From NCBI GenBank assembly GCA_046757165.1, contig JBHHXT010000058.1, positions 1-24,755 of the forward strand: a stretch of DNA of 24,755 bases, read 5' to 3'. Positions 1 through 24,421 of this stretch are shown here, piece after piece. The stretch is from a bacterium (lineage in GTDB: Bacteria > Zhuqueibacterota > Zhuqueibacteria > Oceanimicrobiales > Oceanimicrobiaceae). The notes under the pieces are model-generated. The model did no database searches. It was given only the letters and a program-made list of their open reading frames with translations, and was not told where the DNA came from. Positions within the stretch are counted from its first letter, which is position 1, and the number at the start of each line of letters is the position of its first letter. The translations under genes and the position numbers were made by a program.

Positions 1-32
1 ATGTTAATCAATTTAAGTGCGTTGAATGGCAG

Positions 33-58
33 CGCAGGTTATGCTTTCGTTATATGCC
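33..58 (+). other. Possible right half of an integron attC site (left half would lie outside the window)
   Basis: CGCAGGTTATGC-TTTC-GTTATATGCC resembles an L' box, spacer and GTT core end of attC sites; the pairing partner is not visible. Confidence 0.3.
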
Positions 59-136: not shown

Positions 137-1132
137 TCAATATGAAACATAAATAGCAGACTTGTCAATTCTCGAATTCAGCGGACCGACCGTTTTTAAT
201 TTGAAAGCGGCCAAATTGCTACCTGCCAGAATGCATTCTGGTGGTTGATGACCGTCCAACCAGGCGGTGAGAAAGCCAGCCCAAAAGGCATCTCCCGCTC
301 CGGTCGCATCGGATACCAAAACCTCTCTACCTGGAACATGCTCTTGATTAGCGCCGTGGTTCCAGGAGACCAAGCTGCCTTTTGCACCCTTGGTTAAACA
401 AACCAATTCGGCTCCCCAATTGTGGAAGCGCGAAATGGCTTCTTCAGCGGTTAATGTGCTGTCATCAAATAGCCTGGAAATATCGTCCAGACTGATTTTC
501 GTTAAAGCGCCATGACTACAATATTTGGCAACAATTCTCTGCGCTTCCTCTCGATTATCCCAAATTGATGGAGCGTAATTGACATCGATACTCAGGTGAC
601 ATCCAAGCTCTGACGCTCGACCGGCACCACCGAGGATACTGCTTTGGGCTGGCTCACGACTCAAGGCAAAACACGTCGTATGATAAATGCTGCTACGCTG
701 GATTACGTTGCCGCTAATATGCTCCGGCTTTATCATGACATCAGCAACTCTGTAGGCAATGAAATCCGGCGTTCCCTGTGTTTTCGTGAGAATGACCATA
801 GAGGTTGGGGCAATCGGGTCAGTTATAATATAATCTGTAATGACACCGGCTTCCTTCAACTGCTTCTTCAGGAAGTGACCCAGACCTTCGTTGCCTACAC
901 AAGCGATTAAAGCAGTTCGATTTCCCAGGCAGGCTAAATTAGCTGCAAGATTGGCCGGACTTCCCCCCCGATAGCGATGAAAATCGCGCGCTTTCTCTAA
1001 GTTGTCACACGCCTCATGACTTATGAAGTCGCAAAGGAATTCACCGACGGCTAACACATCGATTTCTCTACTTCGGCGAGATTTTGACGGTGCGATAAAG
1101 GTCAGTTTTAGGGAAGATGTTTTTTCAGCCAT
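137..1132 (-). CDS. PfkB-family carbohydrate kinase, probably fructokinase
   Basis: VGEFLCDF start, GGSPANLAANLACLG (PfkB signature 1), DVNYAPSIW, DATGAGDAFWAG (PfkB signature 2). As called, it overlaps the upstream GT4 gene by 25 nt. Confidence 0.9.
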   Translation of the reverse strand: MAEKTSSLKLTFIAPSKSRRSREIDVLAVGEFLCDFISHEACDNLEKARDFHRYRGGSPANLAANLACLGNRTALIACVGNEGLGHFLKKQLKEAGVITDYIITDPIAPTSMVILTKTQGTPDFIAYRVADVMIKPEHISGNVIQRSSIYHTTCFALSREPAQSSILGGAGRASELGCHLSIDVNYAPSIWDNREEAQRIVAKYCSHGALTKISLDDISRLFDDSTLTAEEAISRFHNWGAELVCLTKGAKGSLVSWNHGANQEHVPGREVLVSDATGAGDAFWAGFLTAWLDGHQPPECILAGSNLAAFKLKTVGPLNSRIDKSAIYVSY

Positions 1133-2595
1133 TCTTCATCTATATCATTATTTTCAGGATTCTTAAAATAATTTGGAATAGGATATGTTCGTTGACTCGC
1201 AACCTCTCCCGCTAAGATTGCGTGAATTTCAACAAGATAACTTTCTGCGGCTTTTTCCCAGGTGTGTTTTTCATTGACTCGATGTATTCCGGCTTGCTGC
1301 ATCAGTCGCCACTCCCGTAAGTCGAGGGTCAATCTCGTTAGGCCGTTACCAATGTCAGCCGGATCATTTGGATCAACAAGGATTCCATACTCGGTCTTTT
1401 CATCTTGCAAACTTTCGCTCGGTCCACCGTTCTTAGTCACTACTGCTGGCAATCCACAGGCCATCGCCTCTAATGGCGCCAATCCAAAGGGCTCGTAAAC
1501 CGAAGTAAGCGCAAAAATACCTCGCCGATTTTTTGCAAAATAACGATATGCGGCAGCTAACTCCTTTTGGTTTTTCAGATCAAAGGCTGTTACGCAAGGC
1601 CAAAGATTGGCTTTTTCCAGGATTTCAACAATTTGGTTAAGGATAGAAAGCTTCTCACCAGAGTAAAACGAGTTTCTTTGGCGTAATGGATCCGGATGGT
1701 CATTTACAACCAGGGCTAAATTCGCAGAATCCCGTAATCGTTGATTTACTTGCCAAGCACGTAACAGTGCCACATGATTCTTTTTTCGATCAAGGCGACT
1801 GGAACAAATCACCACGGGAAGATGGCATCGACTTTCCGGAATATCGCGTTTCAACATTGCTTCGACTTTTTCAGCGATTCGCTCCTCGAATTCATCTTTC
1901 TGGTCAATCCCGAATAATCGTAAGTTCACACCCGGTGGAATGACGGCAAACTTTTGGTCGTCTTGAGGATCGACCGCTCCCGCGTAAATCTGGTGCTTGT
2001 ATTGTTCAAATCGCTCCTGACGAGTGCTGGTGATGATGCGGCTGGCCCTGGCCATGCTTAAACGCTCAGCGGCGATGCGTTTATCGAAATGGAACCGTTG
2101 CAACAACTGTGAGAGGCTTTCTCTACTTTTTAGAAACTGGTCCATTTTTTGTGCGCCTAAGCTGTGTGCCGTGAAAGTAAAAAGGGTGCCTAAACGCTCT
2201 TGTAGCAAAGCAGCCGCAAGTCCGCCGTCACCATAATGGCTGGTAGCAGCGACAGGAAACTGACCTTCGTTTTGATAAAATCGAATAATATTCTCAACCC
2301 ACTCGCGTATCCAGGGCCACAATTCTTCTTTGGGTAATAAATGATCAGGGCCACATGGCAATCTAATAATTCTTATGTTATGATGCCCGGGATAATTATC
2401 AAATGTCGCTGCAAATTCTGGCCAATTTGGGTCGATAATTTGTCTGGTAAGAATATCTACTTTACAATTTAATTCGCCCAGTGCCAGGCTCAATTCTTTT
2501 ACATAAACGAGTTGACCGCCAAAATCCGGATGCTCGGTCCAGCCTCGATCAGTTGGATCGAAATTTCCTTGCGGATTTAAAAATGCGATTCGCAT
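1108..2595 (-). CDS. sps: Sucrose-phosphate synthase-like GT4 glycosyltransferase (GT-B domain only, no HAD phosphatase domain)
   Basis: AFLNPQGNFDP..WTEHPDFGGQLVYVKE, LPKEELWP, HYGDGG, HSLGAQK, SSRLDRKKNH, YEPFGLAPLEAMACGLP; motifs and length (495 aa) match the Halothermothrix orenii-type SPS as recalled. Confidence 0.88.
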   Translation of the reverse strand: MRIAFLNPQGNFDPTDRGWTEHPDFGGQLVYVKELSLALGELNCKVDILTRQIIDPNWPEFAATFDNYPGHHNIRIIRLPCGPDHLLPKEELWPWIREWVENIIRFYQNEGQFPVAATSHYGDGGLAAALLQERLGTLFTFTAHSLGAQKMDQFLKSRESLSQLLQRFHFDKRIAAERLSMARASRIITSTRQERFEQYKHQIYAGAVDPQDDQKFAVIPPGVNLRLFGIDQKDEFEERIAEKVEAMLKRDIPESRCHLPVVICSSRLDRKKNHVALLRAWQVNQRLRDSANLALVVNDHPDPLRQRNSFYSGEKLSILNQIVEILEKANLWPCVTAFDLKNQKELAAAYRYFAKNRRGIFALTSVYEPFGLAPLEAMACGLPAVVTKNGGPSESLQDEKTEYGILVDPNDPADIGNGLTRLTLDLREWRLMQQAGIHRVNEKHTWEKAAESYLVEIHAILAGEVASQRTYPIPNYFKNPENNDIDEEWLKKHLP

Positions 2596-2600
2596 ATTTT

Positions 2601-4184
2601 TTACCAGAACATTATTACCAGAATTGCTGTTAGAACTATCAACGCAACGGATAAGATACGGTAATTTTTGTACCAGACAACATCCTTTAACAGCCGTGAC
2701 TCAGCGTCATAAAATCGCTTCGCCCAGGTGAGTTCGTTGGTTTTTTCGTCAGGAGGCGGCGGAGTCATGAGGCTGACCATTACGATGACCGGAATCGCTA
2801 CCAGAAATAGGATCAGCGCAACGTAAAGAAAGTGCATATTCATAATTAACAGAATTTCATTGGCAATGAAAAGAAGCGCGCCGGATAAAAATCCCACCAC
2901 CAATGTAGCAAAAGCTCCCTGCGCATTTGCCCGTTTCCAGAAGATGCCAACCAGAAAAAGTGCGGCAACCGGAGGCACCGTATAGGAAAGTACTCTCTGC
3001 AAGTACTTAAAGAGCGACCCGAAATTCTCGATGAAAGGCGCCCATACCGCGGCTAGAATCATGAAAAAGGCGGTTGCGGCGCGGCCAACCCACATGAGTT
3101 TTTCACTACTCAAGTCCGGCCGCCTTTTATGCACAAAGTCCATCGTAACCAGCGTAGAGGCAGAATTTAGCGTGGAGTCAATTTGAGACATCAGGGCAGC
3201 AACAAATCCAGCCAAAGCAAGGCCTACGACACCTACCGGCAAGAGGTCAAAGAGTAGGGTCGGATAGACGAGGTCGGCTTTCGGCAACTCCGGGTAGAGC
3301 ACTCTTGCCATCGTGCCGGGAAGAACCATAATAAACAGTGGCGGCAGTTTCAGAAACCCTGCGAAAATTGCCCCCCAGCGGCCGTGGTTCTCGTCTTTGG
3401 CGCTTAAGACACGCTGCACCATAAACTGGTTCGTGCACCAAAAATAGAACCCCAACAAAGGAACACCGGTGAGTAAACCGAGCCACGGCACACCCGGATC
3501 ATCCAACGGACGGACGAGACTGAGCATCTCGGGAGGAGTGATGTCAGTTACGACGCCCCAGCTTCCGATCTTCACAAAAGCACAAATCGTAATAATAATC
3601 GAAGCGATCAAAAGTAAGATGGCTTGAATCATATCAGTATAAATCACGGCTGCCAGGCCGCCTGCGATGGTGTACAAACCCGCCAGCAGGGCCAGCACGC
3701 CAATCGTCTGCCATAAGGGGATTCCCGGAAATATCAATTTGATCAACAAACCACCGGCATATAGACTTCCGGCGGTATCGACGACAATGTTTAGAAAAAG
3801 CGTTAGCACCGAAAAATACGTGCGGGCGCGCCCATCGAATCGCTTTTCCAGAAATTGCGGCATGGTGTAAACTCGGGAGCGCAAGTAAAAAGGTAAAATA
3901 AAGATGGCAAAGAAAACCAGGATGACGCTGGCCATCCATTCATAATTGTAGACTGAAATACCTGTGCTGTACGCATCCCCGGCCAATCCAACCAGCGTAG
4001 TACTGGATATGTTGGAAGCAAACAAAGAGAAACCTATTAGTGGCCACGTCATAGAACGGGCCGCCAGAAAATAGTCTTCTGCCGTTTCGTGTTTTTTTGC
4101 AAATCGAAATCCTAAATAAACAACAAACGCCGCATACAATGCAACCAAAGTTAAATCAATGGGATGCAAACTGAATTCTGGCAT
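2601..4184 (-). CDS. Sodium:solute symporter (SSS/SGLT-like sugar transporter)
   Basis: EDYFLAARSMTWPLIGFSLFASNISS, YTIAGGLAAVIYTD, YFWCTNQFMVQRVLSAK, AALMSQIDSTLNSASTL; many hydrophobic helices. Confidence 0.95.
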   Translation of the reverse strand: MPEFSLHPIDLTLVALYAAFVVYLGFRFAKKHETAEDYFLAARSMTWPLIGFSLFASNISSTTLVGLAGDAYSTGISVYNYEWMASVILVFFAIFILPFYLRSRVYTMPQFLEKRFDGRARTYFSVLTLFLNIVVDTAGSLYAGGLLIKLIFPGIPLWQTIGVLALLAGLYTIAGGLAAVIYTDMIQAILLLIASIIITICAFVKIGSWGVVTDITPPEMLSLVRPLDDPGVPWLGLLTGVPLLGFYFWCTNQFMVQRVLSAKDENHGRWGAIFAGFLKLPPLFIMVLPGTMARVLYPELPKADLVYPTLLFDLLPVGVVGLALAGFVAALMSQIDSTLNSASTLVTMDFVHKRRPDLSSEKLMWVGRAATAFFMILAAVWAPFIENFGSLFKYLQRVLSYTVPPVAALFLVGIFWKRANAQGAFATLVVGFLSGALLFIANEILLIMNMHFLYVALILFLVAIPVIVMVSLMTPPPPDEKTNELTWAKRFYDAESRLLKDVVWYKNYRILSVALIVLTAILVIMFW

Positions 4185-4226
4185 ATGATCATTCCGAATT
4201 ATGAATAAGAGCTATTGCAAATTAAG

Positions 4227-4255
4227 AGGCCACGCACTACAACAGTGCGTGGCCT
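4227..4255 (-). terminator. Stem-loop between the TBDR and symporter genes (partial terminator or mRNA stabiliser)
   Basis: Perfect 12-bp inverted repeat AGGCCACGCACT-N5-AGTGCGTGGCCT, followed on the minus strand by a weak T tail (CTTAATTT). Confidence 0.65.
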
Positions 4256-4279
4256 AGAAACTTACTACCAGAAAATTCA

Positions 4280-6922
4280 CTAATTAAGGCTGTAACCCAC
4301 CGTAAGGGCTATAGAGCGACCCGCTATCGGCCTTACCCGCACAAAGTTAACCTGATTGTCTACGATGCTGCCTTCCTCAGATTCGGTAATTCCCAGTGTA
4401 TCCAGCAGGTTATTTCCACTAACCGATGCAGCCAATTTGCTCGTTATCTGATACCTTAGAAATCCATTGACAATCACATAGCCCGGCATAATGAGCTCGT
4501 TGCTGTCTTGCGCGTATGCCTTGGTCTGGCCGATGAGACTTAACCCGACTGAATGCTGACCTATAGAATATGTTGGGATAAGATTGAACATAACAGCAGG
4601 TTGCCGCCGCGGCGTATTGCCGTCATTCGCTCCGGATGTGATCTCAGCCTTCGTGAGGGTCATTCCACCACGTAGATCCAGTGCGCCGAGACTCAATGCG
4701 CCTTCTACTTCAACGCCGAATGCATCATAATCATTCTCAATGATCTTTTGGGTAGTCGCCTCAAATCCCCCTTCTTCGGTTGTGCTTGCCAGAAATCCCG
4801 TGACAAATAGACCACCCTTACTGAACAAGTGTTTGTACCCAAATTCCGCTTGACGGATTATATCTTTTGCATTCAGAGTCGTTCCACCTGTATAAGGCAA
4901 TCCGAGAAACAACAGGCGATCGGCTTTTGCTGAACCGCCCCGGCTGTAACGAACAAAAACTGCTTGATTTTCATTGAGCTGGTAGTTGCCGCCGACTGAA
5001 AAAGACGCATAGTCGTAGGTATAATCAACCGGCGTGGTATTGGCGTTATCTATAGCTGAAACACTTTCTTCGTTCGGTGAAATGACGCCATCGTTATTCA
5101 CATCGAAGGTTCTCTGTACGGGGCCGGCGAATTGTCCTGTAACACGTCCATTATCAATACGAACACTGGCGTCCACGTTCAATGCTTCGCTGACTTCTAG
5201 ATCTGCACTGAAGTAAGGCGCGGTGGTCAAATAATCTGTATCATAATTCCGCTGACAGCAATTGCCCCAGAAAGGCACGCCATATGCATAAAGTCCGTTT
5301 TGACTTAACTTTGTGCCATCGGCAGCAAAAACATCCACCAGCCTCGCATTCTCACCATCCACATCTGTCAGGTAAGAATTCCAGAGCCAGGACATGGAAA
5401 TGGATTGGTTCGACAAATAGAAACCGGCACCCAGATTTGCTTTTCCGAACTGCTTCGATACTTTGAAATCATTCACCAGGAAATTGAAATCGTTCAACTC
5501 GGTATCAAACAGGTGAATTCTGAGAGCGAGTCCATTCCCCGCATTTCCATTTCCAAAGGGAGTGCCATCTGCATATTGAAGGAATGCTCCCGGGCCCCCG
5601 ATGGATTCAGCCAATTCCTGAGCGGTGCCAATCTGGGCCGGAAAAGGCGCAACGAAGCGGCCAGAATTAAGTGCCAATCTCCCACGATTCTCAAGCCGCC
5701 AGCCGTTATCAAGGTCGCGTGCGAATTCAAGTCCAACTGCCGTGGAGAGAGCATGCATTCCGTCAGCGACATCACTACGCCGGAGCGCACCGTCAACTCC
5801 GAGACCCAGATTTTGCAGCAAAAACGGGGTGTGCATTGTGCCTGAAGTAGCGTCATATCCAGCAATAGAACCCCAGTTCGGGGAATCGTTTGTTCCCTCT
5901 ACTCTTAACGGCATGGGCATGTAGGCAGCGGCACGATCATTCAGGTACTTGAAGTAAATCCGGCCATATCCGCCATCAAATAGTCTGGTGAGGTTCATTT
6001 TCACCTGACCGCCGGAGTTTGCAGTGTAGCCGGTTGTTCTTGGTCCGTCTCCCTGTCGCACGAAACCACCGACGTGGAAGCTCATATCATGGCCTAATGG
6101 AGACCCATACTCAAAGTCAACGCGGGAGTGCTTATAATCCAGACCGGTGCTTGTGCTGACGTATCCACCTGCAGCTGCACCGGTTTTGCTGATAAAGTTG
6201 ATGATGCCGGCAGGTGAATTGCTTGCCAGAGTAGAAGCGGAACCACCACGGATGGCTTCAATGCGACCGACATTGTAGTCCGCTCTTAAGAAAATATCCA
6301 CTGTAGCAAAAGCAATATCGCCAAACTGAAAGATGGGTAGACCATCTTCCTGCAATTGCAGATATTTCGCCCCTCCTGCGGAGATGGGGACGCCTCTCAG
6401 GGTGATATTTGTATTTCCATCGCCACCGGAAGCTTCCGAACGAACGCCAGGTATGGTCCGAAAAATCTCCGCAGTTGTTCTGGGTGCAGACTTTTCAATC
6501 TCCCGGATATTCAATGTGGAAATGGATACACTGGATTCAATTTTTGAAGCCGGATTTACGACACCGGTGACCACGACTTCGCTCAGACCCAAAACATCTT
6601 CCTCGAGAACGAAATCTACTGTGGCCGTTGCATCGGCTGCAACCGTTACTTCTTTCTTAACCGTTTTATAACCGATAAATCGGGCAACCAGGGTGTATGT
6701 CCCTGGCGGCACAGCAGAAATGGTGTAATTACCCTCCAGATCAGAAGCAGCACCCATCAGAGTACCCTCGATAGATATATTTGCGCCAGCCAAAGCCATG
6801 CTCTCGTTGTCCTTTATGCTTCCCGCAATTTTTCCGGTTGCCTGGGAGAAAACTGTCGAAGTTGAGAAGAGGATGAGAATGGCAAAAGCGATTAATTGAA
6901 TTTTTGTTCTTTGAGATTTCAT
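4280..6922 (-). CDS. TonB-dependent receptor with N-terminal carboxypeptidase-regulatory-like domain; resembles sugar (sucrose-type) TBDRs
   Basis: Signal peptide; GKIAGSIKD..LAGANISIEGT..GAASDLEGNYTIS; EVVVTG; plug motifs IPGVRSEASGG, LQEDGLP, IEAIRGG, PAGIINFISK; C-terminal NNLLD..GRS beta strands; RBS AGGAGG. Confidence 0.92.
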   Translation of the reverse strand: MKSQRTKIQLIAFAILILFSTSTVFSQATGKIAGSIKDNESMALAGANISIEGTLMGAASDLEGNYTISAVPPGTYTLVARFIGYKTVKKEVTVAADATATVDFVLEEDVLGLSEVVVTGVVNPASKIESSVSISTLNIREIEKSAPRTTAEIFRTIPGVRSEASGGDGNTNITLRGVPISAGGAKYLQLQEDGLPIFQFGDIAFATVDIFLRADYNVGRIEAIRGGSASTLASNSPAGIINFISKTGAAAGGYVSTSTGLDYKHSRVDFEYGSPLGHDMSFHVGGFVRQGDGPRTTGYTANSGGQVKMNLTRLFDGGYGRIYFKYLNDRAAAYMPMPLRVEGTNDSPNWGSIAGYDATSGTMHTPFLLQNLGLGVDGALRRSDVADGMHALSTAVGLEFARDLDNGWRLENRGRLALNSGRFVAPFPAQIGTAQELAESIGGPGAFLQYADGTPFGNGNAGNGLALRIHLFDTELNDFNFLVNDFKVSKQFGKANLGAGFYLSNQSISMSWLWNSYLTDVDGENARLVDVFAADGTKLSQNGLYAYGVPFWGNCCQRNYDTDYLTTAPYFSADLEVSEALNVDASVRIDNGRVTGQFAGPVQRTFDVNNDGVISPNEESVSAIDNANTTPVDYTYDYASFSVGGNYQLNENQAVFVRYSRGGSAKADRLLFLGLPYTGGTTLNAKDIIRQAEFGYKHLFSKGGLFVTGFLASTTEEGGFEATTQKIIENDYDAFGVEVEGALSLGALDLRGGMTLTKAEITSGANDGNTPRRQPAVMFNLIPTYSIGQHSVGLSLIGQTKAYAQDSNELIMPGYVIVNGFLRYQITSKLAASVSGNNLLDTLGITESEEGSIVDNQVNFVRVRPIAGRSIALTVGYSLN

Positions 6923-7257
6923 CGTTTCCTCCTGCTAATTGTTAGTTCGATGTGCTCGTCAATAATAAGACTAAGAGCGTATATGAAAACTCGATCAGAC
7001 GTGTCATTCTGTAAGAATCTTTGTAATTTCAAGCACGGACTACCCCCCCAGTCCGGATGTAAAGTCAAAACAGATGCTTCCCGCATGACTGTTATGAGGC
7101 TTTTCAGACACCCTTTAAAGTAAGGGTCAGCTTTCCAACAGTCTTATTTTTCTACAAAAATTGATTGCACCTTAGCCTCCGTCTTATTAAATTAAAAAAG
7201 CCTGATTCAGATTGGGATAGCGCTACCTATCCCGGCTGATTCGTTTAAACATGTTTC

Positions 7258-7281
7258 TTACATGCTTAAACCTCCTTTCAT
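7258..7281 (-). other. Mini-ORF MKGGLSM* with embedded AAAGGAGGT, followed by a hairpin and T-run
   Basis: Minus strand ATGAAAGGAGGTTTAAGCATGTAA; downstream GGGATAG-N6-CTATCCC stem and CTTTTTT. Confidence 0.35.
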
Positions 7282-7387
7282 GATTTAGTTAGTGGTTTAA
7301 ACTACTAATTATATTATTTTGTGAAGGATTTAAGGCTTGGGCCGATCGACCAAGCGCCAATTTGTGTCCGATTGGCCCATTTTGTTT

Positions 7388-7414
7388 CTACTTCTTTATG
7401 TCACCTCCTTTCAT
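7388..7414 (-). other. Mini-ORF MKGGDIKK* with embedded AAAGGAGGTGA, followed by a hairpin
   Basis: Minus strand ATGAAAGGAGGTGACATAAAGAAGTAG; downstream GGGCCAATCG...CGATCGGCCC stem. Confidence 0.35.
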
Positions 7415-7521
7415 AACTTTGAATTCTCTCGGCTAAAATTGAGTTATTGTTTACTGATGATTTAGATGAATTGTTGGTTTTCGTTTTTTATCAATTCCCT
7501 CCAAATAAGAATTACTTTTCC

Positions 7522-10521
7522 CTAAAAAGTATAGGATGTACTTGCGACTATCGAGCGGCCGTAAATCGGCTTCGCATAAAATAGGTCAGCCGTTGAACCG
7601 ACAATGCCATCCAGCCGCGGATCGCCTTCAACGATTCCGAGGGTATTGGTCAAATTATAGCCGTTGAATTGCAAACTTATTTTCTGACTCAGTTCAATAG
7701 TAAAGGCTGCGTTATATTGCGTGTAGGCAGGCAGCTTTTTTCTATTAGCCGGATCCGCAAACCGGTCACTGTAATGCTGGATGGTTAAGGTGAAATTCGC
7801 CGGCCCAAGCCGATAGGTTGGACTTACTGTAAAATACAGTTTTGGGATTCTCTTTATCTGGTTGCCATCTAGATTGATTTTCTCAAGTACTTTTGGTGTA
7901 TCAGGGTTATGGTCATGGTCAACCGGTTGACTAAACATCCAGTTTTTATAACGGATATCCTGCACCGTTGTAATCACATTGAGGGTGAAGGGGCCATGGC
8001 TTGCGATAATTTCCGTTTCCAGCCCATAGCCACGGCTCTTGGCTGTTTCGTTGAGGGTTATAAACTTGTCCGGGTCATTCGGGTCTTGAATAAATTCAGC
8101 AAAGGGGATACGGTCGAAGGTGCTGTAGAAGAGCGTTCCGAAGAAAGCCAGGTTGGGAACGGAGTATTTGAAACCTGTCTCATATTGATAGATATTCTCT
8201 ACATCCACTTTAGAGTTTAACCCATTTGGTCTGCTTTCATCGAGCCCGCCGGTAAAATTCATATCATCCGGGGCTCTAAATCCTTTACTTGTTCGACCAA
8301 AAAGCACCGCATTTTCGCCGAGTTTGAAATTGAGACCAAAGGACCAGGCGAACACATCATAGTTAAATTTGACAGAAGTGGTCTCACCCGTGCCGTATTG
8401 GACGTTGTCGTCCGCGGTAGTCATTTCATCACCCAGGTCAAATTCCGCCGTTTTTTCTATCCAGCCGTTCATCGTGCCGGTTTCAAAGCGCAGACCTAAA
8501 TCAAGCGTCAACTTGTGAGTAGGCGTAAACTTGTCGTTCAGAAAAAAGGCATGTACCTCCGTATCAAAGCGATAATGATTGTAGAAAGAACCGTAATCCG
8601 ACCAGCCATTTTTGGTATAGGATACGCCGGTACGATTGTTCATTAAATTCAAGGCTCTGGTTTTATCTGAGATATCGACTAATAGGTTCTGCCATTGCCA
8701 CAGGCCTTCTACGTTGCTGGTTGAGAAATAATACCCGCCATTCACATGATGCAAACTAAGTTCCTTAGATATGGAAAAAACATCGGAGAAGTCCCGCAGA
8801 GGTGTGGTAACATGCCACCATCCGTATTCGCCAACCAGACCATTCGTCGTGAGATCAGCTTGTTCTCCTGTGCGTTCACCTCGCGCATACGTATAGGTGT
8901 AATCCGCATCGGGTCCAAATACATTTCTGGCAAAAGCATCGTATTGTAACAGGGAACCAACAGGGAAAATACCAATAAATTTTGAATCTATTATCGATTT
9001 CTTAAAGGTATTTTTTAGTGTCCAGTTTTTGCCAATGCCCCAAAAAGTTTCCCCACCAAATGAAAAGACCTGCGGATTTATGCCATCGCCGAGATCAGCT
9101 ACCAGGCTTTTCCCGTTAGGTTTTGGCACATCAGCGAACCTGATATCCGAACTCGCCAGAGTTCCGAAGAGAGGGTCAAACCCTGCGATTGCTTCATAAT
9201 TGTCAGCATCCTGCAAGGGGATGTTCACATAAGAGATGTTACTATCATGGAGATACTTCATATTAACACGGAGATACCCCCTGTTCATATAATAAGTCAT
9301 GTTCGCTTTAATCTGCCCGCCCTTATCTGCTAAGAACCCCGGTGAACGAATGCCGTTAGACACTCGATAAAAGCCACCGACATGGTAGCGTAATTTCTCA
9401 CTGAGGGGTCCACCAAAATCGAGATCAGTCCGGTGATATTTGTACGTAACCCCCAAACTTTGTTTGATTTTGCCTTGAGACGTTTCGCTGCCAGTTTTGC
9501 TAATAATATTGACGATTCCCCCAGGCGCATTGCTGGCAAAAATAGAGCTGGGACCCCCTCTTACGGCTTCCACACGGGCGATGGTTTGATCAACACGCAG
9601 CCAGAGGTCGGCATTGCCGAAGGCCAGTTCAGGTTGTTCGAAAACCGGCATGCCATCTTCCTGCAAGACCACATAGCGGTAATTGCCATCCGCCGGGATA
9701 CCGCGCGCCCAGAGATTGTTATTGTTTTCACCACCAACGCTTTCAACATAAAAACCAGGTATGGATTTCAGCAGATCTGCGACATTTTGCGGAGCTTGCC
9801 CTTCGATTTTTCGTGGGTTCAGCGTTGTCACGGCCACACTGGATTCAAGCTTGGTTTCAGGATTAAAAGTGCCGGTCACGACCAGCGCTTCCATATCCAA
9901 TACATCTTCATAAAGCTTGAAATTATGCGTTGATTCTGTACCTGCAGCAACGGCCACCTCTCTTTTCGCCTTTTTGTACCCAATAAAACTGGCAACCAAA
10001 TCATAGCTGCCGGGGGGCACATTTTTTATCTGGTATTTTCCCGAAGCATCCGTTGCCGCACCCAACTCGAAACCGAAATTTGAAGAGCTATCCTCAAGAT
10101 AAACGTTTACGCCGGTGAGTGCTCCGTTCCGGTCACTGACATAGCCCTCGACTGCGCCATATACGATGTCAGAAGAATTTGCGTCGCGTTCAACCAGGGC
10201 GATGGTCCTGTGTCCGATTTTTTTGAAGGTGATTGGATATTCAGCAAGCAAATCTTCCAGCACTTCATAAATATTTTGGTCTGCTGAATATGTAAGCTTG
10301 GGCACCGTACGACCTTGAACCAACTTGTCATTATACATGACATGGACACGAAAGACCTCTTTTAGCTGGGACAGCGCCTCGCCAAGATCTATCCTCTGAG
10401 GCGCCAGGTCTACGTCGCGCCGAGACTTGGAAGCCAACTCTTGTGAGAAACCGTTGATTGTGAATAAGGCAACAGCAACGGTTATCAAAATACGTATTAT
10501 ACTTTGCGTGCCCATATTCAA
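7522..10521 (-). CDS. TonB-dependent transducer (STN-like signalling domain, carboxypeptidase-regulatory-like domain, plug and barrel)
   Basis: After the signal peptide, LGEALSQLKEVFRVHVMYND..IYEVLEDLLAEYPITFKKIG is an STN-like domain; ALVVTG; plug motifs shared with 4280-6922; ends SYTF; directly downstream of fecR. True start may be ATG at 10515. Confidence 0.92.
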   Translation of the reverse strand: MNMGTQSIIRILITVAVALFTINGFSQELASKSRRDVDLAPQRIDLGEALSQLKEVFRVHVMYNDKLVQGRTVPKLTYSADQNIYEVLEDLLAEYPITFKKIGHRTIALVERDANSSDIVYGAVEGYVSDRNGALTGVNVYLEDSSSNFGFELGAATDASGKYQIKNVPPGSYDLVASFIGYKKAKREVAVAAGTESTHNFKLYEDVLDMEALVVTGTFNPETKLESSVAVTTLNPRKIEGQAPQNVADLLKSIPGFYVESVGGENNNNLWARGIPADGNYRYVVLQEDGMPVFEQPELAFGNADLWLRVDQTIARVEAVRGGPSSIFASNAPGGIVNIISKTGSETSQGKIKQSLGVTYKYHRTDLDFGGPLSEKLRYHVGGFYRVSNGIRSPGFLADKGGQIKANMTYYMNRGYLRVNMKYLHDSNISYVNIPLQDADNYEAIAGFDPLFGTLASSDIRFADVPKPNGKSLVADLGDGINPQVFSFGGETFWGIGKNWTLKNTFKKSIIDSKFIGIFPVGSLLQYDAFARNVFGPDADYTYTYARGERTGEQADLTTNGLVGEYGWWHVTTPLRDFSDVFSISKELSLHHVNGGYYFSTSNVEGLWQWQNLLVDISDKTRALNLMNNRTGVSYTKNGWSDYGSFYNHYRFDTEVHAFFLNDKFTPTHKLTLDLGLRFETGTMNGWIEKTAEFDLGDEMTTADDNVQYGTGETTSVKFNYDVFAWSFGLNFKLGENAVLFGRTSKGFRAPDDMNFTGGLDESRPNGLNSKVDVENIYQYETGFKYSVPNLAFFGTLFYSTFDRIPFAEFIQDPNDPDKFITLNETAKSRGYGLETEIIASHGPFTLNVITTVQDIRYKNWMFSQPVDHDHNPDTPKVLEKINLDGNQIKRIPKLYFTVSPTYRLGPANFTLTIQHYSDRFADPANRKKLPAYTQYNAAFTIELSQKISLQFNGYNLTNTLGIVEGDPRLDGIVGSTADLFYAKPIYGRSIVASTSYTF

Positions 10522-10536
10522 TAAAGGTAGTTAAAC

Positions 10537-11637
10537 TTAGTTTTCTTGAGTGCCAGATTCACCAAATATGATGACATTGCCTTCCTGGCGGACCGGAATC
10601 TTTAAAACCGCAGATAAGCCCCTGGTCATGACTGCCAGATTATAGTTTTCAATTGATCCCGATACGGTTTCCTCAAGCAGACGTTCATCGGTGATCTTCA
10701 CGGTGACACCATAGGTCTCTTCGAGCCGTTTTACAATTTCTTTTAATGGCGTCTTGTTCATGACAAATTCATTCTGCCACCAGGAGGTGTATGGCAGAAC
10801 GTCGATGGCTTTTGGATGAAAATCTTTCGCCCCCTGTTTGAATGACAAAATATGTCCTGGCTTGAGCAAGAAGGGCTCACGATTCATCTTAAAGGAAACT
10901 GTATCAACCGCCATCACCTCTACTAAACCTTCTTCCAGGGCCACACGTGTGCCACTCCCTCGCGCATACACTGCGAAGCGTGTTCCAACAACCTTTATCA
11001 TTCCATCGCGCGATTCTACTACAAATTCTTTCTGTTCATCTTCAGGCATAGAGACAACATCAAAATAGGCTTCACCTATGAGAAAAAAGCAACGCTTTGT
11101 CTTAGATGTCCATTTTGCCGGATAGGTAAGCTGCGAATTGGCATTCAGAACAACTCTTGATCCATCCGGGAGATTCAATTCTGCTCGCTTACCGTATTCG
11201 GTGGTAAGTATTTTGGTTGCATCATTTGCATTTCTCAAAAACCCGAAAGGGTTAAGATTCCAAACGATTGCGGCCAGCATCGCAACCGCAATAGCGAATG
11301 CAGTGCGAGGCAGCCAGCGACGCTGTGTGCCATTACTTTTAGATTTATATTTTCTGGGTAAAGAAATGATTCTTGCGGTTGAACTGGCTTCTGATAATTG
11401 TGACAAGCGACTTCTGAGATTGCTTAATTCAATATCAAGATCCGCTTTGGGATAAGGCTGGAATTGCCCCAAACGCCAAAGTTCTGCGGCTTCTTTACAT
11501 AACTCCTGGTTTTCTGGATCAGCTTCCAGCCATTCTTGCCATCGTATTTTCTCATCCTCAGAAGCAGTTCCAGAAAGCCAGCGGCCAAATGAAACATCGA
11601 ATAATAGAGTATCGAGTTTGGAGGAACTTTCAGTCAT
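10537..11637 (-). CDS. fecR: FecR-family anti-sigma factor
   Basis: N-terminal WLEADPENQ helix, single TM segment, TEYGKRAELNLPDGSRVVLNANSQLTYP, GEAYFDV, VVGTRF, C-terminal PLKEIVKRLEETYGV domain. Confidence 0.95.
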   Translation of the reverse strand: MTESSSKLDTLLFDVSFGRWLSGTASEDEKIRWQEWLEADPENQELCKEAAELWRLGQFQPYPKADLDIELSNLRSRLSQLSEASSTARIISLPRKYKSKSNGTQRRWLPRTAFAIAVAMLAAIVWNLNPFGFLRNANDATKILTTEYGKRAELNLPDGSRVVLNANSQLTYPAKWTSKTKRCFFLIGEAYFDVVSMPEDEQKEFVVESRDGMIKVVGTRFAVYARGSGTRVALEEGLVEVMAVDTVSFKMNREPFLLKPGHILSFKQGAKDFHPKAIDVLPYTSWWQNEFVMNKTPLKEIVKRLEETYGVTVKITDERLLEETVSGSIENYNLAVMTRGLSAVLKIPVRQEGNVIIFGESGTQEN

Positions 11638-11872
11638 TTAAATATTTCCGTTGAATTTCCGTTGATGATTAATAGTTTTCTTACTTAAGGTTTTCAGTTA
11701 TATAGAGAGTAGCAGGGCGTCAATTTTAATGGTCAAGAATGAAAATTCTTAAGATTTTGTTGGAATCGGTCTTCATGGCTATAAAACGGAATAGTTTTAA
11801 TATTGCAGAGAAACTTGTTGCCAAAGAGGGTTTAAGAGTGATCGATAGATTGTTGGTGGGTGAGAAAAATGA

Positions 11873-12454
11873 TTATCCTTTGCCCAAGAATGTTTTCTTG
11901 AGTCTTTGGAAAGCCTCAGAAACGTAATTGTAAGCAACCTGCGGTGAGACTTGCATGACTTCAGCGATTTCCTTATAAGAAAGCTCATCAAACGTTCTCA
12001 AATATAAGGCTTCTCGCATTCGAGCTGGAATTTCACTCATAGCATTTTGCAAAAGCTCTTTTTTCTCCTCTCGATGTTCTTGCAGCACGACTAAATCTTC
12101 AGGAGAAAACGCATACAGATCTTCACCCGTGGCTAAGCTTTGGTGTCTGTTCTTGAGTTTGCGGTTTTTTTCAAGCATTGACAAATAATGACGCCGGACG
12201 GAACTCAATAAGTACGCCTTTACAGATGAGACGCTCGCTATGTCTTTCCGTTTTTTCCAAATATAGATAAAAACTTCTTGAATACAGTCTTTTGCCAACT
12301 CTTCAGATCGTGCCAATTTTAAACAATAATCATATAAAAAGTGGTGATGGCGAGTAAACAGCGTTTCCAGGGCTTTTTCATCGTCGAGACGCAATCGCTC
12401 CCATAGTTGTCGATCTTCGGCAGCGAGTTTATTTGATGTCTCTATAAGCGCCAT
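11873..12454 (-). CDS. ECF RNA polymerase sigma-70 factor (FecR-coupled type)
   Basis: ALETLFTRH, AKDCIQEVFIYIW (region 2), VKAYLLSSVRR, IPARMREALYLR..LSYKEIAEVM (region 4); upstream of fecR. Confidence 0.95.
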   Translation of the reverse strand: MALIETSNKLAAEDRQLWERLRLDDEKALETLFTRHHHFLYDYCLKLARSEELAKDCIQEVFIYIWKKRKDIASVSSVKAYLLSSVRRHYLSMLEKNRKLKNRHQSLATGEDLYAFSPEDLVVLQEHREEKKELLQNAMSEIPARMREALYLRTFDELSYKEIAEVMQVSPQVAYNYVSEAFQRLKKTFLGKG

Positions 12455-12495: not shown

Positions 12496-12903
12496 CCTGA
12501 ATAATTCATAAAAAAAACTGTTTTCTTTCACAAGGTTTTGTTTTATATTTAGTTAGATCAAAACCAAACACAAAACCGAGTTGGAGAAAACAGCTATGAG
12601 TAAATATACGAAACAATTGATGCTTTTTAAAGAGATTTCCGGTAAAAAAGTTGAAATTGATTTTGACGGCGGTGACGTCAGTTCGGATGCAGGCGTACTT
12701 TTTCTCAAAGAAACCGAATCGGAAATCGGAATTATTAACAAAGTTGCCGAAGCCATCATTGATAAACGACATCAGAGTTATGTCAAACATGAGACGGTTC
12801 ATCTTTTAACGCAACGTGTCTTTCAAATCGCCTCTGGTTACGAAGATGGTAATGATTGTAATGAACTTCGCCATGACCCGATTTTCAAGATGTCTTGTGA
12901 TAG
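12496..12903 (+). mobile_element. IS1380-family element, 5' remnant (left end plus about the first 100 transposase codons from ATG 12596)
   Basis: Left end CCTGAATAATTCATA; FDGGDVSSDAGVLFL and QRVFQIASGYEDGNDCNELRHDPIFK are IS1380 transposase N-terminal motifs; similarity stops at the IS66 end. Confidence 0.85.
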
Positions 12904-12956
12904 GTATCCATCCCACCAACCCCACCTTGCACCTGTTTTTAGAAATCTAGAAATCG

Positions 12957-13373
12957 CTAACATGGGCTATCGGTGGGAACCGCTCTTTTCCATTTTTGCG
13001 GTAGAAGCTCGTGAAGTTTCTTGTGCGGATGCGTGGCGATGCGGGCGATGACGTCGCGCAGATACTCGAAGGGCTCGTAATCGAGTTCTTCGGTCACCTC
13101 TTCACCGATTTTTTTCATGCCGGTGGTGTCGCCCTCCGGCTCGCTGGCCATGAACTCCAGATGGCCTTGCGCGCCATTTGGCTCGGGCACGAAGCGTTCG
13201 CTTTTGGCGCCGCAGATGAGTTTTTTGAGACGGGCGAGTTTCTGAGTCAGATAGGCGACCTGGGCTTCCAGTTGCGCCTTTTCGCTCGCGACAGCCTGGA
13301 ATTGGGAGCGAAGAAGCTGATGCTGTTCTAGAAGGGCGTCGTAAGTTAGTGGTGTCTCCCCAGGAAGTTCCAT
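12957..13373 (-). pseudogene. tnpC: IS66 TnpC with in-frame internal deletions (DDE core absent)
   Basis: Leucine-zipper N-terminus (..LKKLICGAKSERF), KKIGEEVTEELDYEP, then directly the C-terminal EPFEYLRDVIARI..LHELLPQKW; only 138 aa. Confidence 0.88.
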
Positions 13374-13400
13374 GGGGATAAGATATGTAATTTCAGCGAT

Positions 13401-13766
13401 CTATGCTACTACTTTTTCGAGAAATGTCATATTTTTTCGGCGCTTGACACTGGCAAGCTCGATGCCTTCGATGAGCAGCATCAAGTCGGCATACGGCAAA
13501 AGCAGTGAGTCAGTTTGGGCTGAGTGTGGCGGCAGTTGGAAAGAGCCACTCTCCAGGCGTTTGTAGAAAATCCAGAAGCCGCCGCGTTGCCACACCAGCA
13601 GTTTGATGCGGTCGCGCCGGCGGTTCAAGAGGACATAGACATCGCCTGAAAGCGGGTCGCGCGCCATGGCGCCGCTGACGAGGCCGCACAGGCCATCGAA
13701 GCTCTTGCGCATGTCGGTCGGCGGCAAATAGAGAAAGAAGCGCTGCGGCGTGATCAGGGGCAGCAT
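13401..13766 (-). CDS. tnpB: IS66 accessory protein TnpB (Orf2)
   Basis: PTDMRKSFDGL, DPLSGDVYVLLNRRRDRIKLLVW, KRLESGSF. Confidence 0.95.
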   Translation of the reverse strand: MLPLITPQRFFLYLPPTDMRKSFDGLCGLVSGAMARDPLSGDVYVLLNRRRDRIKLLVWQRGGFWIFYKRLESGSFQLPPHSAQTDSLLLPYADLMLLIEGIELASVKRRKNMTFLEKVVA

Positions 13767-13768
13767 GG

Positions 13769-14128
13769 CTAAAGCCGCTTGCCGGCAGCAACGGGTTGCA
13801 GAGTGATGAGGACTTTGAGCAGCTCCGGGTCAACGGCTGTGCCCAGGCTGACCACCACGCCATTGGGGTAGTGCACCACCACACCCTGGTCGCCAGCAGC
13901 AGCGGCAGACTGGACGGCGGGCTTGAGCTCGACAAAAAGGTGGCGCTTTTCCGGTTGCTGTTCGTCAGAACGATGATGCTTGCGGTAGCGCGAAAGCCAG
14001 TATTGAAAAGTCGAGAGCGCCAGCCCTTGCGACTGGCAGAAAGCTTTCTGGCTCTTGCCACTGGCCGCGTAGGCCTCGATGAGCGCAAACATCTCCTGCG
14101 CCCGGATGCTCAAACGACGGTCGGACAT
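13769..14128 (-). CDS. tnpA: IS66 accessory protein TnpA (Orf1, HTH)
   Basis: SGKSQKAFCQSQGLALSTFQYW, FVEL, VHYPNGVVV; RBS GAGGAG; overlapping arrangement with tnpB. Confidence 0.9.
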   Translation of the reverse strand: MSDRRLSIRAQEMFALIEAYAASGKSQKAFCQSQGLALSTFQYWLSRYRKHHRSDEQQPEKRHLFVELKPAVQSAAAAGDQGVVVHYPNGVVVSLGTAVDPELLKVLITLQPVAAGKRL

Positions 14129-14180
14129 CTTGCTTCTCCTCTCTCAAATCGCTGATAGTTGGGGTGGGCCGGATGGATAC

Positions 14181-14540
14181 TTCAATGGTGAGAAGGTCAC
14201 CTACCGCTACCAGGACAACAAGAAACGGCAGCACACGCCAACTCTCGATGCTGAAACGTTCATCAGCCGCTTTCTGCAGCATGTGCTGCCAAAGGGCTTT
14301 GTGAAAGTGCGCTATTACGGCTTCTTCAGTCCGCGTAAAAGAGAGACGCTCGAGCGTGTCAAAGAACTCTTTGGCTTATGCGATTCAGAAGAGAAATCCT
14401 GCTCCGCGACCGGCTGTGGCGGCGACGCTGAAGGGCGGGTGATGCGCTGTCCCAAGTGCGGCGAACCCATGGTGCTTGTCGGTGACATCAAACCGAAAAA
14501 GCATCTTCTGGGCTGGCCCTTGCAGTGGAGACCGCCTTGA
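14181..14540 (+). pseudogene. IS91-family (Y2 rolling-circle) transposase, 3' fragment
   Basis: VTYRYQD..LDAETFISRFLQHVLPKGFVKVRYYGF and C-terminal CPKCG..M zinc knuckle; 5' part replaced at the IS66 end. Confidence 0.88.
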
Positions 14541-15107: not shown

Positions 15108-18100
15108 CTACTTCATCAAAATAAGCCGCTTCATACCTTGAAAATTTTTGGCCTCCAGCCTGTAAATGTAAACACCGCTGGCGACTTTGACGCCGCTTTC
15201 ATTTCTGGCGTTCCAAACCACTTTATGTTCACCGGCAGTGGCTTGGCCATAATAAAGCGTTTTGACAAGCTGCCCCATCATGTTGTAAATGGTCAGTTTG
15301 ACTTTGCCCGCTTCCGGTACGGCAAAAGAAATCACTGTCGTCGGATTGAACGGATTGGGGTGATTCTGCGCCAGCCCAAATTCACCAGGCAATCCTAAAG
15401 ATTCCAGGTTACTGACAGCTGATTTATGGGCTTTGCCGTTATGATCATCATCATCGTCATCGTCATCTTTGGATAGGTCAGCGCTGACGGTTGCTGTGCC
15501 CACGTTCCCAGCGGCATCGGTGGCGGTGCAGACTAAAACGGGCGCTTCGGTACCTTTAACTTCTTTCAGATTTCCGTTCTTGTCAAACTTGAATTCGTGC
15601 TTGTGATCTCCGGTGATTTTGAGTTTCAATTCTTGACCGTCGTTGACGGCTACACCGCCAGCGCTTTGAACCGCTGCCCATAAGCCGTGCGGGTCCGGTC
15701 CTGCGACCTTCACTTTATTCTTTTTCAGGTCATATTTCAGCTTGTTTTCTTTTTTCACATGGAATTCTACTGTCGGGTTGGTTAAGGAGGGTGCCTGCAT
15801 GACAGCGGTCAAATCAAGAATACTCGAGCAATTATCTGTTGCGCTGCACTGGACTGCAAACCTGCCCTCGTCATTATCATCATCTTCCTCGTCGTCATCA
15901 TCGCCTGGCACTGAAATGAGGTCGGCGGTGATGACCGGCGGGGTGTTATCCACGACATTGACGGTAATATCCGTGCTGCAGCTTCCGCCGTTGCCGTCAT
16001 CAGCCATCACAGTGACTACGTTCGCGCCCAGAACCAGCGTGGTCGGGTTGACGGTGATGGTCAATGGGTCGCCATCCGGATCGGTCACGCCTGTGACGTC
16101 CGCGCCGGAGATGGTGGCGCCGCAACTGGCATCCGCGTTTTGGTCGGCGATGGCTGCGAGATTGCAGTCGGGATCCTGATTTGAGGGTACTTCCGGCGGC
16201 GGTGTGCCGCAAACGTGGGTGCCGGGTGCGTCCGGGTCCATCTTGGTGATGAAACAGTCGAAACCGCCGGCAAGGGTGGATTGCAAGGCTGATGTGGTGA
16301 CGGGGAAATCTGTAGAACTTGTTCCCCCAACCGCATAAAGCGCACCGGCGGCGTCCACTTGGATGTCGGTGATGAAGTCATTTCCAGTGCAGCCGAAATA
16401 GGTAGAGAACTCGATGGTGGACCCGTCCGCGCTCAGCCTTGTCAGCGTTGCGTCTAATCCACCAATAAGCGAGTTCTGGAAGTGATTGACCGTGGGAAAG
16501 TCGGTCGAAGCGGTGTTCCCGCCGACGTATATTCTGGCCGAGGCATCCAGGATTATGTTGGAAGGGAATTCATTTCCGTTCCCACCGAGGTAAGTGGAGA
16601 CACTGAAGGCCGTCCCGCCCGCGTTAATTTTCGTCACAAAGAGGTCGCCCGTTGATCCCCCACCACCAAACGCGGCTTGTACCGGCGACACCGTCGGGAA
16701 ATCGGTCGATTTGGTGTAGCCCGTCACGTATGCATTGCCTGCTGCATCCAGAACGAGATCGATCGCCTCATCATTGTTCGAGCCGCCGATGAACGTGGAA
16801 TAAAGGAGCGCTGTCCCCGAAGGGTTGAGCTTCGCAGCGTATGCCTCTAAGGGAGTGCCACTGAACACAGCGTCTGGAGGAGAGCCTGCCAGGGGGAAAT
16901 TAGTCGAGCGAGTGCCACCTGCCACGTACACATTGCCCGCCGCGTCAACCTCAACAGCGTTAACTCCCTCGTTGGCTGCTCCGCCCAGGAAAGTCGCCCA
17001 GTCCAAGGCCGTACCGCTGGGATTGAGCTTAAACACAACGCCGTCGGCCTGGCCGTTGATAGTCTGATCGAAGACTCCTGCTGTAACCGGGAAATTAGCG
17101 GACAGACTAAGCCCGGCTACATAGACGCTGCCGTCTGTACCCAGGGCAATAGCGTGATCTCCGACTCGTTCGGTGTTGTTGCCGCCGACGTAGGTCGAGT
17201 AGACGAGCGCCGTGCCAGTTGGGTTGAGCTTGGTTACGGCGATGTCCGACTGACCACCGCCGAATGCTGTCTGGAAGGCTCCGGACGTCGTCGGGTAGTC
17301 GTTCGATCTGGGATCAGCCACCAGGTAGGCGTTTCCGGCTGCGTCCACCTTGAGCCCCAAGAACCGTCCATCCGTATGATCGTGGTTGCTGCCGCCGATG
17401 AACGTCGAGTAGAGCAGAGTCGTACCCGTTGGGTCCAGTTTAGCGAGATAGTTGTCTCGGAGGCCGGGGCTGTTGTGCGTCACGTCGAACGCCCCAGCCG
17501 TCGTCGGAAAGTTGGCGCTGGGCGTCACGCCGGCGAGGTAGGCATTGCCGGCAGCATCCACTTCGATTCGTGTCGCACCGTCGAAGCCATTCCCGCCGAG
17601 GTAGGTCGAGTAGAACAGCACCGGGTCGATCACTAGCTCGCGGCTCGGGTCATAATCGCCAATCTCGAAACCAACCTGGTTGTCGGCCAGCAAGGCGTAC
17701 TTCCCATCAACTCTCGCGAGATAGCTATCATGTTGCTGGTAGAGTACCGGTTCGCGCAGCACCACGTCTCCGGTGGCCGTCGCCAGTACCAACTCGCCGT
17801 CCGCCAGCGATATTGCCTCGGCGCCGTCGAAAGACAGGCTTATGGCCGAGGGGTCAATACCTGGCGCGATCACGAAGTCGTACTCAAGCTGACCCTGCTT
17901 GCCATAATAAACCACATCGATTCCGGGCCAGATGTCGTCGTAACGCACCTTGCGGTACTGAGCAACATTAGTTTGCCACTGTTCCGGATCACTGCCCTTG
18001 AAGTAGTTACTGGCACCGGGCAAACGCTCGACGCCCTCGGCCTGGGCCTCAGGGTTTGCCCCTACGAGTACGAGATGCAGGCCAAAGCCGGTCTCGTCCG

Positions 18101-19411: not shown

Positions 19412-19427
19412 AATGAGGAGAGCAGAG

Positions 19428-19906: not shown

Positions 19907-24421
<4,515 letters not shown>

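Follow-up and report, generated by a model that had tools for sequence, protein, structure and literature searches.

A bacterial sugar import locus encodes a sucrose-phosphate-synthase-like glycosyltransferase and a PfkB kinase that may together cleave sucrose

How might a bacterium break down an imported sugar when the genes beside the importer encode no hydrolase or phosphorylase? This question is raised by contig JBHHXT010000058.1 (C58) of GenBank assembly GCA_046757165.1, from a member of the Oceanimicrobiaceae (phylum Zhuqueibacterota), whose full 24,755 nt we analyzed and call the window. The genome that carries it, G000, is represented by an assembly of 6.09 Mb in 531 contigs, rated 99.98% complete. 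An initial annotation had described seven co-oriented genes here as a sugar import locus whose enzymes are a glycosyltransferase of family 4 (GT4) resembling sucrose-phosphate synthase (SPS) and a sugar kinase, and had suggested that the glycosyltransferase could serve catabolism. We assigned gene labels via Pfam and NCBIfam, which backed each label, and found all seven genes in place on the minus strand with uninterrupted open reading frames (ORFs):

11873..12454, minus strand: extracytoplasmic function (ECF) sigma factor, 193 aa (PF04542, PF08281; TIGR02937 over cut-off)
10537..11637, minus strand: FecR-type anti-sigma factor, 366 aa (PF04773 and PF16344)
7522..10521, minus strand: TonB-dependent transporter 1 (TBDT1), putative signaling transducer, 999 aa (plug and barrel)
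4280..6922, minus strand: TonB-dependent transporter 2 (TBDR2), likely sucrose transporter, 880 aa (sucrose neighborhoods of homologues)
2601..4184, minus strand: sodium:solute symporter (SSS), 527 aa (PF00474, TIGR00813 over cut-off)
1108..2595, minus strand: H. orenii-type single-domain SPS-like GT4, 495 aa, without a sucrose-phosphate phosphatase (SPP) domain (2r60, E 4e-153)
137..1132, minus strand: PfkB-family sugar kinase, 331 aa (PF00294; 3hj6, E 2e-54)

The last three genes are as tightly arranged as had been described, with 5 bp between SSS and GT4 and a 25-bp overlap of GT4 and PfkB, and a Pfam scan of 16 ORFs of the window found no glycoside hydrolase (GH), phosphorylase, SPP or SusD. 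The explanation that we favor, at a little under an even chance, is that the kinase makes sucrose-6F-phosphate and that the SPS-like enzyme runs in reverse, yielding nucleoside diphosphate (NDP)-glucose and fructose-6-phosphate (F6P).

The transport genes point to sucrose as the likely substrate. An SSS orthologue occurs in 15 of 167 genomes of the phylum (E<=1e-130), and when neighborhoods were taken for all SSS matches outside G000, nine had a related TonB-dependent transporter (TBDT) upstream. In eight of these nine relatives the TBDT and SSS genes are followed by a sucrose-cleaving enzyme, the ninth (G010) being cut off. What follows the symporter is a GH100-like gene in four relatives (G030, G144, G151, G005), a Udk/PRK-fold P-loop kinase together with a GH13_18 protein bearing the motif GFDVHQ in three (G014, G149, G150; 6s9v, E 1e-211), and an NLR-type PfkB with a plain sucrose phosphorylase (NLDVYQ) in one (G027); GFDVHQ is described as the signature of TtSPP, a sucrose-6F-phosphate phosphorylase (PMC7178133). 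In the window, the slot of the cleaving enzyme holds only the H. orenii-type SPS and PfkB. The closest cassette is that of G014 (TBDR2 84% and SSS 86% identical), which is of the sucrose-6F-phosphate phosphorylase type and whose contigs C126 and C102 we joined by inference via a split SSS (residues 1-318 and 397-527). TBDR2 is 76-84% identical to its counterparts in G014, G010, G027, G149 and G150, and ECF sigma orthologues, 41-50% identical, adjoin the same cassette in those five genomes and in G030. In the plasmid collection TBDR2 has 23 homologues at E<=1e-60, and all three annotated regions opened around homologues 45-51% identical proved to be sucrose-type neighborhoods, two with a sucrose phosphorylase, LacI, a major facilitator superfamily (MFS) transporter and a kinase, and one with GH68 and ROK. 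Together with the cleaving enzymes of the relatives, these neighborhoods bear out the suggestion that the cassette is likely a sucrose-type importer.

Surface-signal control, which had been singled out as a special feature of the locus, did not prove to be one: ECF/FecR pairs are ordinary for these cassettes in the phylum. Fec-type signaling genes are present, with the ECF sigma factor and FecR adjacent to the transporter. TBDT1, which is 32% identical to TBDR2, has an N-terminal extension of ~100 aa in which the match to the signaling (STN) domain is weak and under cut-off (PF07660, E 0.029). In a test for a SusC-type transporter, the TIGR04056 score was 78 bits vs a cut-off of 368, and SusD is absent among the window ORFs.

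Searches of the whole genome were consistent with what is missing from the locus. The initial annotation had called for a genome search for spp, and none was found: PF05116 has no match in G000 or in G030, and our own SPP hidden Markov model (HMM), for which six C-terminal parts were taken from bidomain SPS and no stand-alone SPP served as a control, had a SerB-like protein as its best match in G000. That protein and one weak partial match were the only HAD matches in G000, and the same HMM matched none of the 2,218 ORFs in the 89 GT4 loci. According to PMC9971976, the SPS reaction is reversible and SPP drives it forward; as SPP was found neither in the genome nor in the GT4 loci, nothing would pull the GT4 forward. 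Nor did the usual invertase or phosphorylase families turn up: G000 has no match for GH32, GH100-like, GH31 or GH97 proteins (the searches did not extend to GH4, GH68 or ROK kinases) and no TIGR03852 match for GH13_18 at E<=1e-40, and the GH13 matches scanned look starch- or glycogen-type, one of them without an NCBIfam name. The P-loop kinase also had no match in G000. No phosphotransferase system (PTS) IIC component was matched in G000 or in five comparison genomes, which leaves a cytoplasmic kinase as the source of any sucrose phosphate. Candidate sinks for NDP-glucose in G000 are a GlgA with a GalT-like neighbor, a TreT-like gene and a PF01704 protein.

The best solved relative of the GT4 is H. 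orenii SPS (2r60), and its sequence carries the GT-B motifs of the family: G26-G27-Q28 (GGQ, motif I), the catalytic H144, and E368-E376 (E-X7-E, motif II). The phosphate site of TeSPS is described as consisting of R105/H158/R178/R249/R253/E331 (PMC7264703). In an alignment to 6kih, these residues are matched by K89, H144, R173, R267, K271 and E368, with K89 and K271 as conservative lysines at Arg positions, and H144, S145, K150, R173 and R267 are invariant in 215/215 GT4 sequences. Since SPS phosphate-site residues are kept, the GT4 should take a phosphorylated sugar, and we propose from these residues that it may cleave sucrose-6F-phosphate. It does not reach the TIGR02472 cut-off (276 bits vs 576), and its clade branches apart from the bidomain SPS-SPP proteins. 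Among the 167 phylum genomes, a GT4 of this type occurs only in G000 and G030, the latter carrying the nearest one (61% identical), and the other nine matches are 31-36% identical; a search of 301 Chloroflexota genomes matched only the seed genome. Further H. orenii-type copies (52-53%) lie in Scytonema and on a Nostoc plasmid (L014, L204), without a kinase or importer nearby.

In the kinase, the best PDB sequence match is the H. orenii fructokinase (FRK) homologue 3hj6, and the GAGD anion hole is intact (G278-D281, with the catalytic Asp). An alignment-based model (predicted local distance difference test, pLDDT, 93.5) gave a PfkB fold with a template modeling (TM) score of about 0.8 to PfkB kinases, which speaks to the fold and not to the substrate. 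The fructose atom that is glucosylated in sucrose is O2. In V. cholerae FRK (VcFRK), fructose contacts are described for D26, D30, G45, N49 and D266, and R176 binds fructose O2 (PMC6240065). The window PfkB has A187 at the position of R176 and keeps the remaining sugar contacts as E31, D35, G57, N61 and D281, D26 being matched by spacing, as Glu. The O2-binding Arg was found in 0/54 GT4-linked PfkB domains and in all three PfkBs beside plain sucrose phosphorylases. On this basis we propose that the PfkB may be a sucrose 6F-kinase. A126 (for VcFRK F115) was considered as a second pocket change and set aside, as a control kinase is different at this position too. Neither the phosphorylase nor the PfkB gave a match in plasmid searches.

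A kinase of another fold stands beside the phosphorylases. This ~215-aa Udk/PRK-fold protein, usually labeled uridine kinase (L036:14456-15100, L166:472-1134, L213-L216, P0121-P0141), precedes 7/7 GFDVHQ phosphorylases, four in Chloroflexota and three in this phylum; among eight phosphorylase matches in the 301 Chloroflexota genomes, it stands before 4/4 with GFDVHQ and 0/4 others. Twenty-one longer homologues include fusions to a phosphorylase (1, P0121), to SPS-like GT4s (5) and to GH100-like proteins (11). The sucrose-kinase domain of AgaSK is described as 215 aa long and modeled on 3ASY (PMC7688924); the P-loop kinase resembles it in size and fold class, and its profile matches 3ASY. Divergent GH100-like proteins of ~410 aa (PF12899, 45-57 bits) were also seen at L036:11641-12891, L146, L155 and L157, and those that travel with these kinases might be sucrose-phosphate hydrolases.

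To see the GT4 in other settings, we surveyed 88 homologous GT4 loci, reduced to 79 at 90% dereplication, with L037 left out as a duplicate of L036; the loci are often short, and 2 kb on both sides were available in 28/79. A stand-alone PfkB was present in 31, the P-loop kinase in 13, both in one and a fused PfkB in 18. PfkB and the P-loop kinase stand in for each other beside the GT4 (Fisher p 0.012, a value overstated by kinship and short contigs). An importer plus a kinase occurs in 20/79 loci, seven of them without a detected GH or TreS, and L055 is a second hydrolase-free TBDT-SSS-GT4-kinase locus. The order in L054, in which an ATP-binding cassette (ABC) transporter and LacI precede GT4 and kinase, mirrors the LacI-ABC-kinase-phosphorylase order in Chloroflexota. 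The clade of the window GT4 (support 1.0) holds L036, L050, L051, L054 and L055, all kinase-linked. The premise that H. orenii-type SPS is normally found with spp and amylosucrase did not hold in this clade, since an SPP domain was detected in 0/89 loci and no amylosucrase-like gene was recognized; an SPS-spp-type operon with amylosucrase is described for Synechococcus PCC 7002 (PMC11046441). A GH100-like gene occurs in 1/79 loci and a GalT-like gene in 14/79, adjoining the GT4 at L100:4555-5688 and in 13 other loci, where conversion of NDP-glucose to glucose-1-phosphate (G1P), or its supply, is conceivable; one GalT-like subgroup has 1z84 as its best PDB match (E 7e-6). In PfkB domains fused to the GT4 C-terminus (L009-L011, L013, L060, L066, L077, L099, L100, L128 and others), GARD, GGRD or GGSD replaces GAGD in 20/20, and an intact stand-alone PfkB is often nearby; such a domain is possibly a pseudokinase sugar sensor on SPS.

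In the pathway that we infer from the observed genes, residues, neighborhoods and genome non-detections, sucrose would enter via TBDR2 and then the sodium symporter, and PfkB would phosphorylate it at fructose C6, giving sucrose-6F-phosphate. The GT4 would then act in reverse, converting sucrose-6F-phosphate and NDP to NDP-glucose and F6P, of which F6P would enter glycolysis and NDP-glucose would pass to glycogen synthase, TreT or a nucleotidyltransferase. ECF, FecR and TBDT1 probably activate the genes in response to external sugar. Among the options put forward in the initial annotation, phosphorylation of sucrose followed by reverse SPS action fits best with the slot swap, the residues and the missing SPP; the activities themselves are predicted from sequence.

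Several observations weigh against this pathway, the main objections being the pairings with GH100 and the double content of G030. Both kinases also adjoin GH100-like genes (G151, G144, G005; 11/21 fusions), which a plain fructokinase would explain simply, and G030 has a GH100-like gene besides its GT4, in the order SSS-GH100-like-GT4-kinase. The equilibrium of SPS favors synthesis, and no GalU exceeded the cut-off in G000. In the survey, an importer lay within 6 kb in only 24/79 GT4 loci, a GH32-like gene was present in 7/79 and TreS in 8/79. Four SSS orthologues (69-71%) adjoin GH3, alpha-glucosidase or unknown GH-like genes, so the symporter alone is not diagnostic of sucrose and the TBDT-SSS pair is; the SSS contig of G013 was too short for context, and a second SSS match in G005 (50%) stood in an unrelated context. 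H. orenii FRK itself keeps the O2-binding Arg, which counts against a strict rule of Arg loss. Near three xxDVHQ phosphorylase variants no kinase turned up, the 21 longer P-loop kinase homologues included no AgaSK-like GH36 fusion, and AgaSK, the sole characterized sucrose kinase of the P-loop type, is reported to give a product phosphorylated at glucose C6, not fructose C6 (PMC7688924).

Taken together, the catabolic readings (reverse SPS action, cleavage in the manner of sucrose synthase, or action on another fructoside) make a probable explanation of the locus. The initial annotation had also proposed that the GT4 cleaves unphosphorylated sucrose as sucrose synthase does, with PfkB as a fructokinase for the fructose released. 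The slot swap and the absence of hydrolases from the genome fit this too, the best PDB match of PfkB is a fructokinase homologue, its sole phylum orthologue adjoins a GH100-like gene (G151), and TtSPP is described as a case of a 6F-phosphate enzyme that can accept sucrose (PMC7178133). The residues argue the other way: the GT4 has S145, G147, K150 and R173 where sucrose synthase has A, E, K or a gap, and Q (HSLG vs HALE), and S145/G147/R173 are invariant or nearly so in the 215 sequences. It is without the N-terminal domains of sucrose synthase, its alignment beginning at residue 266/281 of 4rbn/3s27, it scores 143 bits vs a cut-off of 810 for TIGR02470, and PfkB is without the FRK O2-binding Arg. 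Cleavage of free sucrose is thus less supported, and we consider it unlikely. Very unlikely, in our view, is that the same logic of kinase and reverse transfer applies to another fructoside, such as a sucrose isomer, mannosylfructose or a short fructo-oligosaccharide. The presence of two different TBDTs would suit such a substrate, as would TreS, GH32-like genes and a second GT4, the last in several of the 79 loci; against it, the closest cassettes carry recognized sucrose or sucrose-6F-phosphate phosphorylases.

The locus might instead be incomplete, its hydrolase lost, unlinked or lying past the contig break, with the GT4 accessory (recycling or storage), as possibly in G030. The contig stops 136 bp past the pfkB stop, within a short high-copy repeat, so an additional downstream gene is possible; insertion sequence (IS) fragments lie directly upstream of the locus, and the gene order of G030 would fit. 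Elsewhere in G000, paralogous FecR-TBDT-SSS cassettes on C26 (L040) and C130 (L039) carry a GH63-like gene and an 894-aa GH-like protein, respectively, and it is possible that these two unlinked genes are the sucrose cutters. Set against this are the 5-bp SSS-GT4 spacing with no relic, the intact state of all genes, the same hydrolase-free order in L055, and the searches of this nearly complete assembly, in which the hydrolase and phosphorylase families went unmatched and the GH13s looked starch- or glycogen-type, apart from the one without an NCBIfam name; we rate an incomplete locus as unlikely. Forward use is in our estimation just as improbable: fructose, imported or released, would be converted to F6P and on to sucrose-6F-phosphate, to serve as a signal, as a store or, once a non-specific phosphatase had acted, as an osmolyte. 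H. orenii SPS is a characterized SPS described as a suggested osmolyte enzyme (PMC2626281), the GT4 residues are SPS-type, and Rubrobacter-type loci, which have no sugar importer, combine two GT4s with PfkB and a GalT-like gene. Yet SPP was not found in the genome or the 89 GT4 loci, the HAD matches were limited to the SerB-like protein and the weak partial one, the orthologous cassettes carry catabolic enzymes, and GalU was not found over the cut-off in G000.

Three non-coding features bear on transcription and on the contig end:

6923..7521, minus strand: intergenic gap between TBDT1 and TBDR2, 599 bp, with terminator-like hairpins and two AAAGGAGGT repeats
4227..4255, minus strand: GC-rich hairpin, 13 bp, between TBDR2 and SSS, a partial terminator or mRNA stabilizer (fold z -5.96)
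1..55, no strand assigned: short high-copy repeat outside the pathway, which breaks the contig (copy number and read depth)

Hairpins lie in the gap between the transporters and between TBDR2 and SSS; the seven genes may not form a single transcript, and TBDR2-SSS-GT4-PfkB likely has its own promoter. The 599-bp gap (fold z -3.85) had no match in Rfam, and a gene relic was not found in its sequence; one of its two minus-strand AAAGGAGGT repeats is followed by ATG-TAA, possibly a small RNA or a start-stop element. The contig end was initially taken for an IS, a view replaced on copy count and read depth: the ~50-bp repeat has 35 copies in the genome, 33 of them at contig ends, at a read depth about 150-200x that of the locus (X1-X3).

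Beyond the seven genes, the window holds a cluster of IS fragments (12581-14540; DDE_Tnp_1_4, IS66 Orf2 and C-terminus, Y2 transposase), a secreted SBBP beta-propeller protein with an FlgD/type IX secretion system (T9SS)-like tail (15108-18377), a toxin-antitoxin pair of PIN plus CopG-like proteins (18977-19697) and a hybrid two-component sensor with an AraC domain (19907-24421). In the paralogous cassettes of G000, the GH63 protein of C26 is glucosylglycerate-hydrolase-like and accompanied by a Gfo/Idh oxidoreductase, and the C130 symporter is apparently 5'-truncated. The C130 GH-like protein (L039:5889-8570) belongs to an 820-890-aa family without a Pfam match, with a lead to an MGH1/GDE-like fold, whose members (also L050:590-3124, L151, L153, L154) always adjoin SSS and are glycosidase candidates.

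The importer and its ECF/FecR genes are ordinary for the phylum, and loci of a kinase plus a phosphorylase are already known. In the literature searched, a scope without the primary studies of H. orenii SPS, H. orenii FRK, AgaSK and the SPS equilibrium, we found no report of SPS in reverse as a cleaving step or of a PfkB sucrose 6F-kinase. The source of sucrose-6F-phosphate is given as unknown, or as PTS or uptake, where the papers address it (PMC7178133, PMC6521584, PMC12703740). A broader reading, possible though we lean against it, is that the H. orenii-type SPS clade, which supplies the structural model for sucrose synthesis, is largely catabolic, with an Arg-less PfkB as sucrose 6F-kinase, in an ATP-dependent, PTS-free and hydrolase-free route. 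The group comprises 2,695 proteins at E<=1e-60 among 8,000 candidates, a cut-off that may include other SPS types, and genes labeled 'sucrose-phosphate synthase' are currently read as signs of osmolyte synthesis. If the broader reading is true, the role assumed for a widely annotated group of enzymes would be reversed, bacterial sucrose catabolism would gain a further route, interchangeable with the kinase/phosphorylase module, and the source of bacterial sucrose-6F-phosphate would be explained. The PfkB would then be a candidate for the sucrose 6F-kinase that phosphorylase pathways lack, with a one-residue prediction (A187), and biocatalysis could gain a way of making NDP-glucose from sucrose.

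Among known systems, the best PDB matches of both enzymes come from the H. orenii pair, SPS (2r60/2r66/2r68) and FRK (3hj6), with a single GT-B domain and the same acceptor-site residues in the SPS. Unlike that pair, whose SPS is described as biosynthetic (PMC2626281), the window pair is linked to a TBDT/SSS importer under ECF control and is without SPP, and its PfkB has Ala where H. orenii FRK has Arg. Sucrose synthase (4rbn, 3s27), a GT4 relative that yields NDP-glucose from sucrose, differs in having ~800 aa with N-terminal domains and A/E/Q at the phosphate-site positions. TreT offers a precedent for reverse use of a GT4: this disaccharide synthase is regulated together with an importer and is termed a trehalose degradation enzyme (PMC3553997), with nothing further on direction in PMC7688234. 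It acts on unphosphorylated trehalose and is only a distant GT4 relative. The Xanthomonas sux locus, described as comprising the TBDT suxA, the amylosucrase suxB, suxC and suxR (PMC1790865), likewise has a TBDT and an inner-membrane sucrose transporter; TBDR2 is 48-51% identical to gtfA-linked TBDTs in the gammaproteobacterial loci opened. The window differs from sux in having SSS rather than MFS and ECF/FecR rather than LacI, without a hydrolase or phosphorylase. The TtSPP (T. thermosaccharolyticum) and RgSPP/AgaSK (R. gnavus E1) loci combine an importer, a kinase and an enzyme for sucrose-6F-phosphate, as the window is predicted to do, and the nearest cassettes (G014, G149, G150) are of exactly this type, sucrose-6F-phosphate phosphorylase plus kinase. 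Compared with these phosphorylase loci, the window has a Leloir GT4 in place of GH13_18, with NDP-glucose and not G1P as the expected product, and a PfkB in place of the P-loop kinase.

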